A stretch of DNA of 64,000 nt from Mayamaea pseudoterrestris (GCA_027923505.1 BROI01000004.1:1178001-1242000), one strand, 5' to 3'; counted from the stretch's first letter, positions 42,984-46,310 are shown. Notes: generated by a model from the letters alone, not told the origin. Program-made: numbers and translations.

Positions 42984-45900
42984 ATGGCGGCGGCACCAGA
43001 AGCGAAGACCAGCGGCAAGCGACGGCGATGGTCAGTCGACAGGAACCTCCTGTATCGCTACCGCACGTACGACGGTGAGAATCAATCCTGGTCCGATTGG
43101 AACGATGTTCAACGACCGTCGTCGTCAACACTTGATGGCAGCAGTGAATACAATAACAACGAAGATGATAACAATAAAATAAAAGATACTCCAACAATCT
43201 CGCTACAAATTCCATGTCCGCGCGGAAGCATTGTCGTCTACCCAAACGTCATGGACGCCACTGACCGCAATCTGCTGCGCCAGGAGTTGGCAGACTGCAA
43301 CTACTTTCGCGCCTACCAAATCCAGGGCGGCAAGGAGCCCCGAAGGCATTTTTTGGCGCACGAGAGAGCGACTTGCGACGATGACTTTGACAATGAAAAC
43401 ATGCTACAACCCGGCTATCGCTACAATCACAACAACGCCACATGTTTGAAAGCACGATCACTATCATCATTGCCGCGACTGAGGCAACTATCCAATCGCA
43501 TGAAACGCTACTGCAGCATTTCCGAATGGACCATTGGCGTCAATCCCGTCATTTATCGCAACTACAGCGACTCGATATCGCCGCACGCCGATGACAATCA
43601 ACACGAAACGCTCATACTAGCCGTTGTTGTTCATCAACATGATGGTGTAAATGAACAAGGTGACTGCGGTGAAATTGAACTTGCATGCGAGCAAGACAAA
43701 GATTCGCAACACCAGCCGGACGCAAATACAGTAATTTCTTCCGCCAATGATACTGAAGCGAGCCAATGCGAAAACGTGGAAAGCAGTGCTTGCAAAGCTG
43801 CCGACTCCAACAGTGAACACGATATTACAGCGGCAGCCGCGGAACGCGACAAGCAACACCCGACGGACAATCTTTACGGCAAGGATGCTGGTCCAGCAAT
43901 CAAATCAAGTGTTATTGGCAGTAAAAGTGTCGAAACTGTCGACGCGTTGGGTAATAGCGATATGGTTGCTGCCTCTGACGCCAGCACACGGTTGACGCAG
44001 CAACAAAACAGGATTGTCAGTTCGGCAACGACGACAGTGACAGCAATCAACAGCAATGAAAGTATAAGCAGCAGCAGCAGTACAAACGAAGCATCGCCAT
44101 TAGATGCTCGTCGTCGTCACAATAATGGCAATTTCGGTGCTCGCCAGCCACGTCGTCAGCGGGTGGTCAAGATTGAGCCGCAAAACACCAACGACTTGGT
44201 CCATGGCGACGTGCTCGTGGAGCTGTTTTTGAAAGCGGGCGATGCTTACGCCATGGATGGGGAGCTGCAGAAGCATTACTTTCACTCGGTACCCAAAATT
44301 GTGCATCCAAGTAATGAAACGAAAGTGGCAAATGTCGATATAGCTGCTGCCAATTCAGCGGCAACTAGTGATGAACAACAGCAACCACCCGAACAACAAG
44401 ACACGCACAATCTACGAATCGCCGTCATTTTTCGCTGCGGAGACTCGATACAAGTGGCTCGTGATTCTGGCGTTCCGAGTGACTGGTCGCCCAAGCCACC
44501 GCTCATGCGCCAATTTGGTCGAAGCATTCCTGGTTTAACGGAAGGCGAGTTGTACACCAAGTCACAGTTGCTGCACATGGGTGCGCACGAGGGATTGCAA
44601 AAGGGGGTCAGTGGAAGCAGGCAGCATGGATGCAACGCCATTGCAGTGTCGGGGCTGCGACTCGATGGCAAGGGTTTTGACAACAACTTTGCCAAGATGC
44701 AGTGGTATGTGGAATGGTCAAACGGCGGAAGCGCCATGTGGGCGACTGCCTTGAAGGGTCTACCAATTAGAGTCTTTCGCTCGACCGACTTGAATAGCGT
44801 TTGGCGTGCTCATTCGACGGTCAAAGTGTCGGTCAAATCGTTTCGCTACGATGGATTGTACATGATCAAGGAGGTTGGTTACGAGGGGTCGCTACTCGAC
44901 AATGGCATCGTCTGGGGTACGCTTGGTCCTGAATCACAAATGCCCCTGCATTTGCATCGAAAGACCGTGTGCACTTTTCGAATGCAACGAGCCGAATGGG
45001 GAAGTGGCCCAATGGAAAACCAATTTTCCGACCAGGAATTGGTAATCAAGTGTCTCCGGTCCAAAAACTTGTCCCTGCCTACCAAGTATTGTCCCTGCTT
45101 TTGTAGCGAAAGCCAATATTGCGAATTGCTCAAAACTCACTCGGACGTGGACTTGTGTGACATATTTTTGTATACTTGGGGCCTTACACACTGGTTGAAC
45201 CGAAGAAAAGGAATTAATGGTCGCGAAAATGTGCAAGACAGGGGAGCATTTGTGCAATCCATCCTTGAGCAATATCAAATGGCACCGCGAAAGCTACACT
45301 GGTCGGCTCTACAAAGAAAGGAGCAAGCGGAACGCAAATTAAATTTAGTTCCAGTGATTAGAGTACGTTCTTTCGCGCCGCCAAACATGGAGGCTCTGGC
45401 GGACACTTTGAGCGCCATGATGATTACAAAGAAACGCAAGAAACCGCCCACTCTTCGAACTGTGTCTCCCGACGCGAGCGTCGTTTCCAAACGAACGCAC
45501 CATGTAAAAAAGCGGCAGCGCTGCAGCAAGCTCATTGCCACGCCTGGCGAGCAGGTAGCTGCGAAACTGCCGGAACGAGTCAAGGATGGCAGTGGCATGG
45601 AATGGATTCTAGCGGTGGTCACGAGATATGATGCAGCGACGGATACATACACGGTGTTGGATGCTTCTCAAAACAAAAAGAACAAAACAAACAACAAGCC
45701 ATGCTGTTTGGAGTGGTCGCGGGTCAAGCGTCTTTCCAAGGATCCGTTACAAATCGGCGACCACTGTCTCGCAGTTTACCCTGATACGACGGTTTTTTAC
45801 AAGGCCAAGGTTGTGTCACGGCGCCGACACTTTGCTGACTTGGGTCCTAACTTTCAAATACTAAAGTTTGAAGGCGAAGAAGATTATGATGAACGTGGTC

Positions 45901-46310
45901 GAGTCATGCATTACCAAGTATTGAACCAATATGTACTCGCTTGTCCAGTTGAACCCGACGTGAGCGAATCAGCAACTCCGTTGTTAAGTGACATTACAAC
46001 AAGTTGGGCGACTGACAAGGTTACTGGAACGCCAGTTATCATGCCATCTGCGGCAAAGTCAATGCGCAACTCTACCAGCAAGTTGCTCAAGAACGCTCCT
46101 TCGCCACCAGATACGGACAATATATTCGACAACAAGACATTTGTAGTTGATACGAGACAGTCACCTAACGCGCCACTGTTTGCAGCAAGTCACTATACCT
46201 TGTCGATCAATGGCAGTGTTGCAAGCATGCCAACGTCGCGGGCGCTCCATACTTCCACGAAGCAGCAGCCCGCTCACATGACTTACAAACTCGAGCGGCT
46301 TGATTTATAA
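42984..46310 (+). CDS. Multidomain chromatin protein: AlkB-like 2OG-Fe(II) dioxygenase + SRA/YDG + SGF29-type tandem Tudor
   Basis: AlkB: N..YRN..DSI.PHADD, GDAYAMDGELQKHYFHSVPK, RIAVIFR. SRA: GAH...KGVSG...GCNAIAVSG, LPIRVFRS, FRYDGLY. SGF29: GEQVAAK...EWILAVV, LAVYPDTTVFYKAKV, LKFEG. Confidence 0.85.
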   Translation: MAAAPEAKTSGKRRRWSVDRNLLYRYRTYDGENQSWSDWNDVQRPSSSTLDGSSEYNNNEDDNNKIKDTPTISLQIPCPRGSIVVYPNVMDATDRNLLRQELADCNYFRAYQIQGGKEPRRHFLAHERATCDDDFDNENMLQPGYRYNHNNATCLKARSLSSLPRLRQLSNRMKRYCSISEWTIGVNPVIYRNYSDSISPHADDNQHETLILAVVVHQHDGVNEQGDCGEIELACEQDKDSQHQPDANTVISSANDTEASQCENVESSACKAADSNSEHDITAAAAERDKQHPTDNLYGKDAGPAIKSSVIGSKSVETVDALGNSDMVAASDASTRLTQQQNRIVSSATTTVTAINSNESISSSSSTNEASPLDARRRHNNGNFGARQPRRQRVVKIEPQNTNDLVHGDVLVELFLKAGDAYAMDGELQKHYFHSVPKIVHPSNETKVANVDIAAANSAATSDEQQQPPEQQDTHNLRIAVIFRCGDSIQVARDSGVPSDWSPKPPLMRQFGRSIPGLTEGELYTKSQLLHMGAHEGLQKGVSGSRQHGCNAIAVSGLRLDGKGFDNNFAKMQWYVEWSNGGSAMWATALKGLPIRVFRSTDLNSVWRAHSTVKVSVKSFRYDGLYMIKEVGYEGSLLDNGIVWGTLGPESQMPLHLHRKTVCTFRMQRAEWGSGPMENQFSDQELVIKCLRSKNLSLPTKYCPCFCSESQYCELLKTHSDVDLCDIFLYTWGLTHWLNRRKGINGRENVQDRGAFVQSILEQYQMAPRKLHWSALQRKEQAERKLNLVPVIRVRSFAPPNMEALADTLSAMMITKKRKKPPTLRTVSPDASVVSKRTHHVKKRQRCSKLIATPGEQVAAKLPERVKDGSGMEWILAVVTRYDAATDTYTVLDASQNKKNKTNNKPCCLEWSRVKRLSKDPLQIGDHCLAVYPDTTVFYKAKVVSRRRHFADLGPNFQILKFEGEEDYDERGRVMHYQVLNQYVLACPVEPDVSESATPLLSDITTSWATDKVTGTPVIMPSAAKSMRNSTSKLLKNAPSPPDTDNIFDNKTFVVDTRQSPNAPLFAASHYTLSINGSVASMPTSRALHTSTKQQPAHMTYKLERLDL

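Follow-up and report, generated by a model that had tools for sequence, protein, structure and literature searches.

The AlkB-type dioxygenases ALKBH2 and ALKBH3 are single-domain enzymes of ~260-290 amino acids (aa) without an SRA or a Tudor domain, and the substrates of ALKBH3 are single-stranded DNA and RNA. In UHRF1/UHRF2, SUVH4/5/6/9 and TagI the SRA domain is partnered with RING, SET or HNH, and in SGF29, which reads histone H3 di- or trimethylated at lysine 4 (H3K4me2/3) within SAGA and ATAC, a tandem Tudor follows an N-terminal region that anchors the protein in the acetyltransferase module. The nearest described architecture comes from computational work on stramenopiles, in which AlkBH3-related dioxygenases fused to an SAD (SRA) domain were reported, one of them with a PHD (Iyer, Zhang and Aravind 2016; PMC4738411). 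The same paper holds that members of the AlkBH3 and AlkBH5 clades with a fused PHD, SAD/SRA or AT-hook are conceivably demethylases of N6-methyladenine (m6A, also 6mA) in DNA, and that a divergent SAD on a fungal AlkB may recognise m6A and not 5-methylcytosine (5mC) (PMC4738411). The subject of the present analysis is a fusion open reading frame (ORF), here P0001, in a window of 64,000 nucleotides (nt) of Mayamaea pseudoterrestris DNA (GCA_027923505.1 BROI01000004.1:1178001-1242000; all positions are counted from its first letter), which joins an AlkB-like dioxygenase, an SRA domain and an SGF29-type tandem Tudor in a single chain. Like the fusions of Iyer et al., it places AlkB before SAD/SRA in one stramenopile protein, and the earlier note on this DNA, made from the sequence, was correct in stating that such pairings had been noted computationally. 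Unlike them, P0001 carries a 160-aa disordered insert within the catalytic fold, and an SGF29 Tudor, which goes unmentioned in the accessible part of the paper's text and has 0 occurrences in its supplement. A literature search with figures and subscription journals outside its scope found no publication on an AlkB-SRA-SGF29 protein, and none in which an AlkB-SRA protein of whatever kind was tested experimentally. As far as sequence comparison goes, the SGF29 Tudor as reader appears to be a new variation on a computationally known AlkB-SRA fusion.

The earlier note had proposed an intronless ORF of ~1100 aa with three modules, a description that the analysis bears out. The frame is single and open over 3324 nt, with zero stops in 1108 codons, and 2OG-FeII_Oxy_2, SAD_SRA and SGF29_Tudor each score above their curated Pfam cut-offs; at E <= 1 Pfam returns four families in all, with Tet_JBP not among them. 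An AlphaFold2 model built with 78 relatives as input (mean predicted local distance difference test, pLDDT, 66; predicted template modelling score, pTM, 0.58) gave SGF29, SRA and ALKBH2 folds in Foldseek, so that all three folds were recovered. Searched exhaustively with phmmer, 1.84 billion representatives yielded an AlkB-SRA family of 567 matches at E <= 1e-3, 56 of them at E <= 1e-30, compared with the two stramenopiles in the accessible account of Iyer et al. Among 153 proteins (the best 150 of these 567 matches and three more), an SGF29 Tudor is present in three: P0001, P0002 (886 aa, 56% identity to P0001) and P0003 (847 aa, 48%). P0002 and P0003 come from separate sources, have the identical Pfam trio and keep the domain order. 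The features of P0001 are as follows.

42984..46310 (stop codon included), + strand: the AlkB-SRA-SGF29 Tudor fusion ORF (P0001), 1108 aa, in the Mayamaea pseudoterrestris window
43041..43658, + strand: N-terminal beta extension and first half of the AlkB double-stranded beta-helix (aa 20-225; Pfam stretch 83-208; pLDDT mostly >90)
43659..44138, + strand: disordered low-complexity insert in an AlkB loop (aa 226-385, ~160 aa; pLDDT 28-38)
44139..44483, + strand: second half of the AlkB fold (aa 386-500), with H434 at 44283-44285 and R478...R484 at 44415-44435
44496..45083, + strand: SRA/SAD (YDG) domain (aa 505-700); its pocket segment, SGLRLDGKGFD...QWYVEW, is divergent, and the loop at the site of the UHRF1 NKR finger is short
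45084..45533, + strand: SRA-Tudor linker (aa 701-850), with a Cys/His motif and basic runs, KKRKK and KKRQR, resembling nuclear localisation signals
45090-45161, + strand: putative zinc-binding element C703-x-C705-x-C707-x5-C713-x5-H719-x5-C725 within the linker (aa 703-726), invariant in P0001-P0003
45534..45953, + strand: SGF29-type tandem Tudor (aa 851-990), found by Pfam, phmmer and Foldseek
45954..46307, + strand: disordered C-terminal tail (aa 991-1108; pLDDT <50), ending in ...YKLERLDL

A fusion of this kind might be an artefact of the gene model, in which two separate genes, one AlkB-SRA and one SGF29-like, share one open frame by chance, and the low pLDDT of the linker would fit such a view. 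We consider it highly improbable: no stop interrupts the 1108 codons, and both the domain order and the invariant Cys/His motif of the linker are common to two proteins of independent source. The N-terminus of P0001 also matches P0002. Further evidence comes from sequence variation in contigs of four runs from one study, whose run type is unrecorded and which are uninformative on transcription. These contigs cover parts of the ORF with zero joints inside it, and of the 40 best-supported differences between window and contigs (out of 99), 37 fall within the ORF, 26 at third, 5 at second and 6 at first codon positions; taken singly, 23 are synonymous and 14 nonsynonymous. The differences in the linker and the Tudor that are among these 37 likewise lie mostly at codon position 3. 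Taken together, the open frame, the order kept in P0002 and P0003, the invariant linker motif and the third-position bias argue strongly that the AlkB-SRA and Tudor parts form one translated frame. Two antisense ORFs at 44282-44737 and 45275-45598 were rejected, as nothing supports them and the codon-position bias tracks the + frame. Codon 1008 (TGG, 46005-46007) carries two listed differences, one of which would alone create a stop; both together give CGA, which encodes Arg, and the variant contigs therefore need not be truncated.

The catalytic module is the best conserved part of the protein. The 2OG-FeII_Oxy_2 family matches P0001 in two stretches at E 1.1e-12 and 49 bits (cut-off 31.2), and relatives score 45-81 bits. 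The complete 2-oxoglutarate (2OG)-Fe(II) set described in the earlier note was found in place, with HAD at 43584, H434 at 44283 and R478...R484 at 44415; the iron ligands H201-A-D203 occupy 43584-43592 and are adjoined by D204. In an alignment of 78 proteins with both AlkB and SRA parts, the columns of Y191, H201, D203, Y432, H434 and R478 are identical in 78/78 relatives and that of R484 in 76/78. Judged by these residues, the catalytic site is intact and strongly constrained. The position following the HxD motif, acidic in P0001, is D in 53/78 and N in 22/78. In a profile alignment D204 of the P0001 family pairs with ALKBH3 D194, a position which we take to have a role in binding 1-methyladenine (1mA) and 3-methylcytosine (3mC), and the family motif NxxYR...DxxxxHxDD aligns with N179...Y181...H191-S-D193-D194 of ALKBH3. 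The family profile matches ALKBH3 at E 2e-12 over chain residues 30-228, that is the whole catalytic domain, and ALKBH2 more weakly (E ~1e-4); no other AlkB type, the E. coli AlkB chain included, was matched by it at E <= 0.1. ALKBH2, ALKBH3 and P0001 have a common fold and a common, complete set of Fe/2OG ligands, the Foldseek match being ALKBH2 3s57 with a target-normalised template modelling (TM) score of 0.79. By sequence the catalytic domain appears closest to ALKBH3. The TET/JBP enzymes are likewise Fe/2OG dioxygenases and lend the locus the idea of an oxidative eraser of DNA bases; they belong, however, to another branch of the superfamily of which P0001, without a Tet_JBP match, is not a member.

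The two halves of the AlkB fold are separated by the low-complexity insert, which the earlier note had put at ~180 aa; it is real and disordered (pLDDT <50), and its length is closer to 160 aa. It emerges from a surface loop between two strands, after which the model regains high confidence (aa 386-500 mostly >90, except aa 445-477 at ~50). Searched against the 153 proteins the insert matches P0001 itself and no other; it is missing in 5/7 aligned relatives, and P0002 and P0003 carry shorter, unrelated inserts at the same loop. No tandem repeats that could account for its origin were found in the ORF. The possibility that the insert is an in-frame intron was rejected, provisionally on what the sequences offer: its 160 codons are open, the same loop holds shorter inserts in relatives, and a contig of run X1 spans 43562-44428 without a joint and thus runs across it.

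The middle module resembles the SRA domains of UHRF1/UHRF2, SUVH4/5/6/9 and TagI in its beta-barrel and in the conserved GAHxxxQRGVSG and PIRVFRS...YRYDGLY segments, and differs from them in having a dioxygenase as partner. The Pfam match to SAD_SRA is marginal (aa 514-634; E 1.4e-8, 35.0 bits against a cut-off of 30.7), and aa 505-700 are modelled with pLDDT mostly >90. Among solved structures the best sequence match of the AlkB-SRA family profile over this module is TagI (E 6.9e-23), followed by SUVH5 and UHRF1 (~1e-11); by fold the module matches SUVH5 3q0c (TM 0.69-0.70), UHRF1/2 (~0.6) and also TagI. We take Tyr466, Asp469 and Tyr478 of UHRF1 to be the contacts of its 5mC pocket. At the Tyr478 position the aromatic residue is kept (Y 66/78, W 3/78, F 2/78; W574 in P0001), whereas the other two are replaced, as the earlier note suspected when it called the pocket divergent: the Tyr466 position is R559 in P0001, R in 34/78 and otherwise variable (R/S/D...), and the Asp469 position is G562 in P0001 and similarly variable (G/L/K...). 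The loop that follows the pocket Tyr is much shorter than in UHRF1, with 16 profile positions up to the PxRVxR (PIRVFR) strand versus 49 residues in mouse UHRF1, and 16 TagI residues have no counterpart in the same segment. The NKR finger of UHRF1, the reader of the orphaned base, sits within the part that is shortened here. With two of three pocket positions replaced and the loop shortened, the module departs from a UHRF1-like 5mC pocket, and since these positions differ from one family member to another, no particular base or ligand can be deduced from them. The module has an SRA fold with a non-canonical pocket, and we infer that it would not serve as a UHRF1-like reader of hemi-methylated CpG.

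The Tudor is the module that sets P0001 apart from most of its relatives. SGF29_Tudor matches aa 855-988 at E 2.3e-21 and 76.7 bits (cut-off 23.8) over positions 2-132 of the 132-position profile, and the signature AVYPDTTVFY, to which the earlier note had pointed, lies at aa 930-939 inside this full-length match. The model has pLDDT 63-93 over aa 850-990 and finds human and yeast SGF29 by fold, the human chains at E 3e-8 to 3e-7 and TM 0.54-0.64 (3lx7 0.64). The methyl-lysine cage of SGF29 consists of Y238, Y245, F264 and D266, and an H3A1 pocket is mentioned in the accessible text of the same paper (PMC4589357). Like SGF29, P0001 has a tandem Tudor with equivalents of Y238, Y245 and F264, namely Y932, Y939 and F962 (phmmer, 3lx7/3me9), which are invariant in P0001-P0003; it differs from SGF29 in carrying the Tudor in the C-terminal part of an enzyme. 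D893 corresponds to human D194, which together with D196 we take to belong to the H3A1 pocket, and is invariant in the three proteins as well. Three of the four cage residues are thus retained in an almost complete cage, and binding of H3K4me2/3 by the Tudor is likely. A word-based, insensitive search of proteins <609 aa returned no stand-alone close relative of this Tudor.

Between the SRA and the Tudor lies a linker that matches 3/153 proteins, all of them Tudor-bearing. Its C/H pattern may form a small zinc-binding element; aa 700-850 gave no Pfam match and the linker no match in the Atlas, and aa 690-860 found in the PDB nothing but chance-level eL24 matches (E >= 0.11). The basic runs KRRR, KKRKK and KKRQR suggest that the protein is nuclear. 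Most of aa 700-848 and aa 992-1108 is disordered in the model. The C-terminal tail has no Pfam match, and the ~110 aa that precede its end are unrelated between P0001 and P0002; both nevertheless terminate in ERLxL (ERLDL in P0001 at 46290-46307, aa 1103-1108; ERLTL in P0002), which may serve as a binding motif or a short signal at the C-terminus. P0003 is without it.

The AlkB-SRA core itself is that of a large diatom/Parmales family and not a novelty of this locus. Members with a named source belong to Cylindrotheca, Seminavis, Epithemia, Skeletonema and a Parmales species or derive from a Bacillariaceae metagenome-assembled genome, and Pfam on 83 top matches, many of them fragmentary, found AlkB with SRA in 57, AlkB alone in 20 and SRA alone in 6. 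Several sister proteins carry alternative histone-tail readers at the same C-terminal place. Tudor-knot, MSL3-chromo-like or Chromo domains occur on the AlkB-SRA core in P0065, P0095, P0100, P0135, P0144, P0186 and P0192, PHD-like domains in P0140, P0152 and P0153, reminiscent of the PHD in one of the fusions of Iyer et al. (PMC4738411), and zf-CW in P0087; in addition, DUF6824 is joined to an AlkB(-SRA) core in P0045 and P0075. The pattern across the family is one in which histone readers are swapped on one AlkB-SRA core. Some reader-bearing relatives reach 1500-1900 aa and have several chromo-type domains each. Two scans of metagenome contigs of the Joint Genome Institute (JGI), insensitive and hence not implying absence, found no further three-domain relatives.

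A maximum-likelihood tree of the 78-row alignment (419 columns, LG+G4, supports from the Shimodaira-Hasegawa-like approximate likelihood ratio test, SH-aLRT, only), computed without the seven longest relatives (P0050, P0053, P0095, P0100, P0135, P0186 and P0192), places the three SGF29-Tudor proteins in one clade with support 100 and a long stem, inside a larger subfamily. Relatives with chromo, PHD or zf-CW readers are in the other subfamily. Since the Tudor clade and the other readers belong to different subfamilies, the Tudor was probably gained separately from them, and a single origin is also possible. The earlier note had presented the three-domain architecture as unusual, which holds in so far as the SGF29 Tudor is found in 3/153 proteins; at the same time the core occurs in further fusions with readers, which makes the architecture less singular than the title of that note implied. 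The existence of these fusions conversely strengthens the logic of an enzyme combined with a DNA reader and a histone reader. The note's proposal that the protein may erase methylation in H3K4me3 chromatin is plausible, whereas nothing supports the 'writer' role that it had also entertained.

Our best explanation, held tentatively, is that P0001 is an Fe(II)/2-oxoglutarate dioxygenase of the ALKBH2/ALKBH3 type that resides in the nucleus, is tethered to chromatin and acts, where chromatin is active, on N-methyl bases (1mA/3mC class). The Tudor would dock the enzyme on H3 tails with K4me2/3, that is on promoter or transcribed chromatin, the SRA would hold the DNA and flip or sense a base, and the AlkB domain would hydroxylate the methyl group on the flipped base, the group then leaving as formaldehyde. 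By analogy with ALKBH2 and ALKBH3 the most likely substrates would be N-methylated bases of the 1mA/3mC class, which are preferred because the catalytic domain is best conserved and ALKBH3-like; such a domain makes N-methyl bases the default chemistry rather than 5mC. The outcome would be direct-reversal repair or erasure of these bases, preferentially in active chromatin. Several observations weigh against this explanation. The similarity to ALKBH3 is modest and, as with ALKBH2, becomes visible in sequence through a profile (E 2e-12), the single sequence giving no match. In the Tudor, the position of the fourth cage residue, D266, is G964 in P0001, Gly in P0003 and Asn in P0002, in a part of the alignment that is of low confidence, and an invariant Glu, E965, adjoins G964; in SGF29 itself D266A or D266N weakens H3K4me3 binding ~8-fold (dissociation constant 3.1 -> 25 uM) and D266E is neutral (PMC4589357). 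The D196 position is S895 in P0001 and V in P0003, with D in P0002 only, and affinity for H3K4me2/3 may lie below that of canonical SGF29. Iyer et al., moreover, predicted m6A as the target of such proteins (PMC4738411). Finally, a large and diversified family with chromatin readers looks more like a regulatory system than housekeeping repair.

In several protists 6mA is associated with active promoters, and P0001 might be a DNA eraser of this base, with the SRA reading 6mA, the AlkB domain removing it and the Tudor siting the enzyme at H3K4me promoters. This we regard as unlikely, though it gains from the loss of two of the three 5mC contacts in the SRA pocket and from the m6A proposals for AlkB-SAD fusions (PMC4738411). 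The validated 6mA erasers that are named in two sources are ALKBH1/NMAD-1 relatives or TET-like and not ALKBH3-like (PMC10943562; PMC13297926), the latter source, a 2026 review, giving an NMAD-1 relative and TET as the sole characterised fungal demethylases. A pocket in which R559 is R in 34/78 proteins and otherwise variable is, in addition, unlike one shaped by one fixed ligand. The same pocket bears on the headline of the earlier note, a TET-independent 5mC oxidase or anti-silencing factor whose SRA would find 5mC, whose AlkB domain would oxidise it and whose Tudor would confine the activity to H3K4me3 chromatin, blocking the spread of methylation from transposons. It is a quite unlikely reading, given that the Tyr466 and Asp469 positions are not conserved, that the segment at the NKR-finger site is shortened relative to both mouse UHRF1 and TagI, and that Pfam has no Tet_JBP match at E <= 1; oxidation of 5mC by AlkB enzymes is also probably a weak side activity. 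On the other hand, the nearest solved relatives of the SRA (UHRF1, SUVH and TagI) bind 5mC or 5-hydroxymethylcytosine (5hmC), the aromatic at the Tyr478 position is kept, and a paper announces in its title that ALKBH2, ALKBH3 and AlkB oxidise 5mC to 5hmC, 5-formylcytosine (5fC) and 5-carboxylcytosine (5caC) in vitro (PMC6582317). More doubtful still is a substrate other than DNA at active genes, be it protein or RNA (for example 1-methyladenosine, m1A, 3-methylcytidine, m3C, or m6A in nascent RNA), or a role mainly as a reader scaffold with secondary catalysis. The nearest solved relative, ALKBH3, acts on RNA as well as on single-stranded DNA, and two long disordered regions would suit a scaffold. 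PUA-like folds related to the SRA bind modified RNA (PMC4738411). Iron ligands that are all present in 78/78 proteins argue for catalysis, however, and the SRA, like the histone readers, speaks for DNA in chromatin.

The genes that surround the fusion ORF are unrelated to it: Pfam identifies an MFS-like transporter on the minus strand, a downstream HAT-repeat/RRM protein and a weak GH5-like ORF.

41037-42821, - strand: MFS-like gene, divergent from the fusion ORF

The spacer between the two divergent genes measures 162 nt (42822-42983), a distance at which the fusion ORF and the MFS-like gene probably use one short bidirectional promoter. It contains an 11-nt unit repeated 1.9 times at 42948-42968. 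At the other end, contig cover is low at 46232-46415, and a small ORF at 46436-46738 ends just upstream of an ATG at 46741. One contig of run X1 skips 174 nt at 46515-46690 (ends CT..TT), between the fusion ORF and the HAT/RRM gene, which could be an indel polymorphism or part of the 5' structure of the HAT/RRM gene.

As far as the literature search shows, the substrate is known for no member of the AlkB-SRA family. If it is 1mA/3mC, P0001 would clearly exemplify a hard-wired link between alkylation repair and active chromatin; if it is 5mC or 6mA, the family would represent a new class of epigenetic eraser. A more far-reaching scenario, which we think rather unlikely, is that diatoms and their relatives evolved their own family of 5mC/6mA erasers, derived from a repair enzyme resembling ALKBH3 and an SRA of bacterial type, with interchangeable histone readers choosing the chromatin states; the SGF29-Tudor member would then keep H3K4me3 promoters free of the mark and provide a TET-independent boundary against transposon silencing. 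Since the AlkB-SRA family unites, within a single chain, an enzyme that modifies bases with two readers, one that flips DNA bases and one for histones, direct crosstalk between DNA marks and histone marks becomes testable, and if diatoms are without TET, an active route of demethylation would most obviously be sought in this family.

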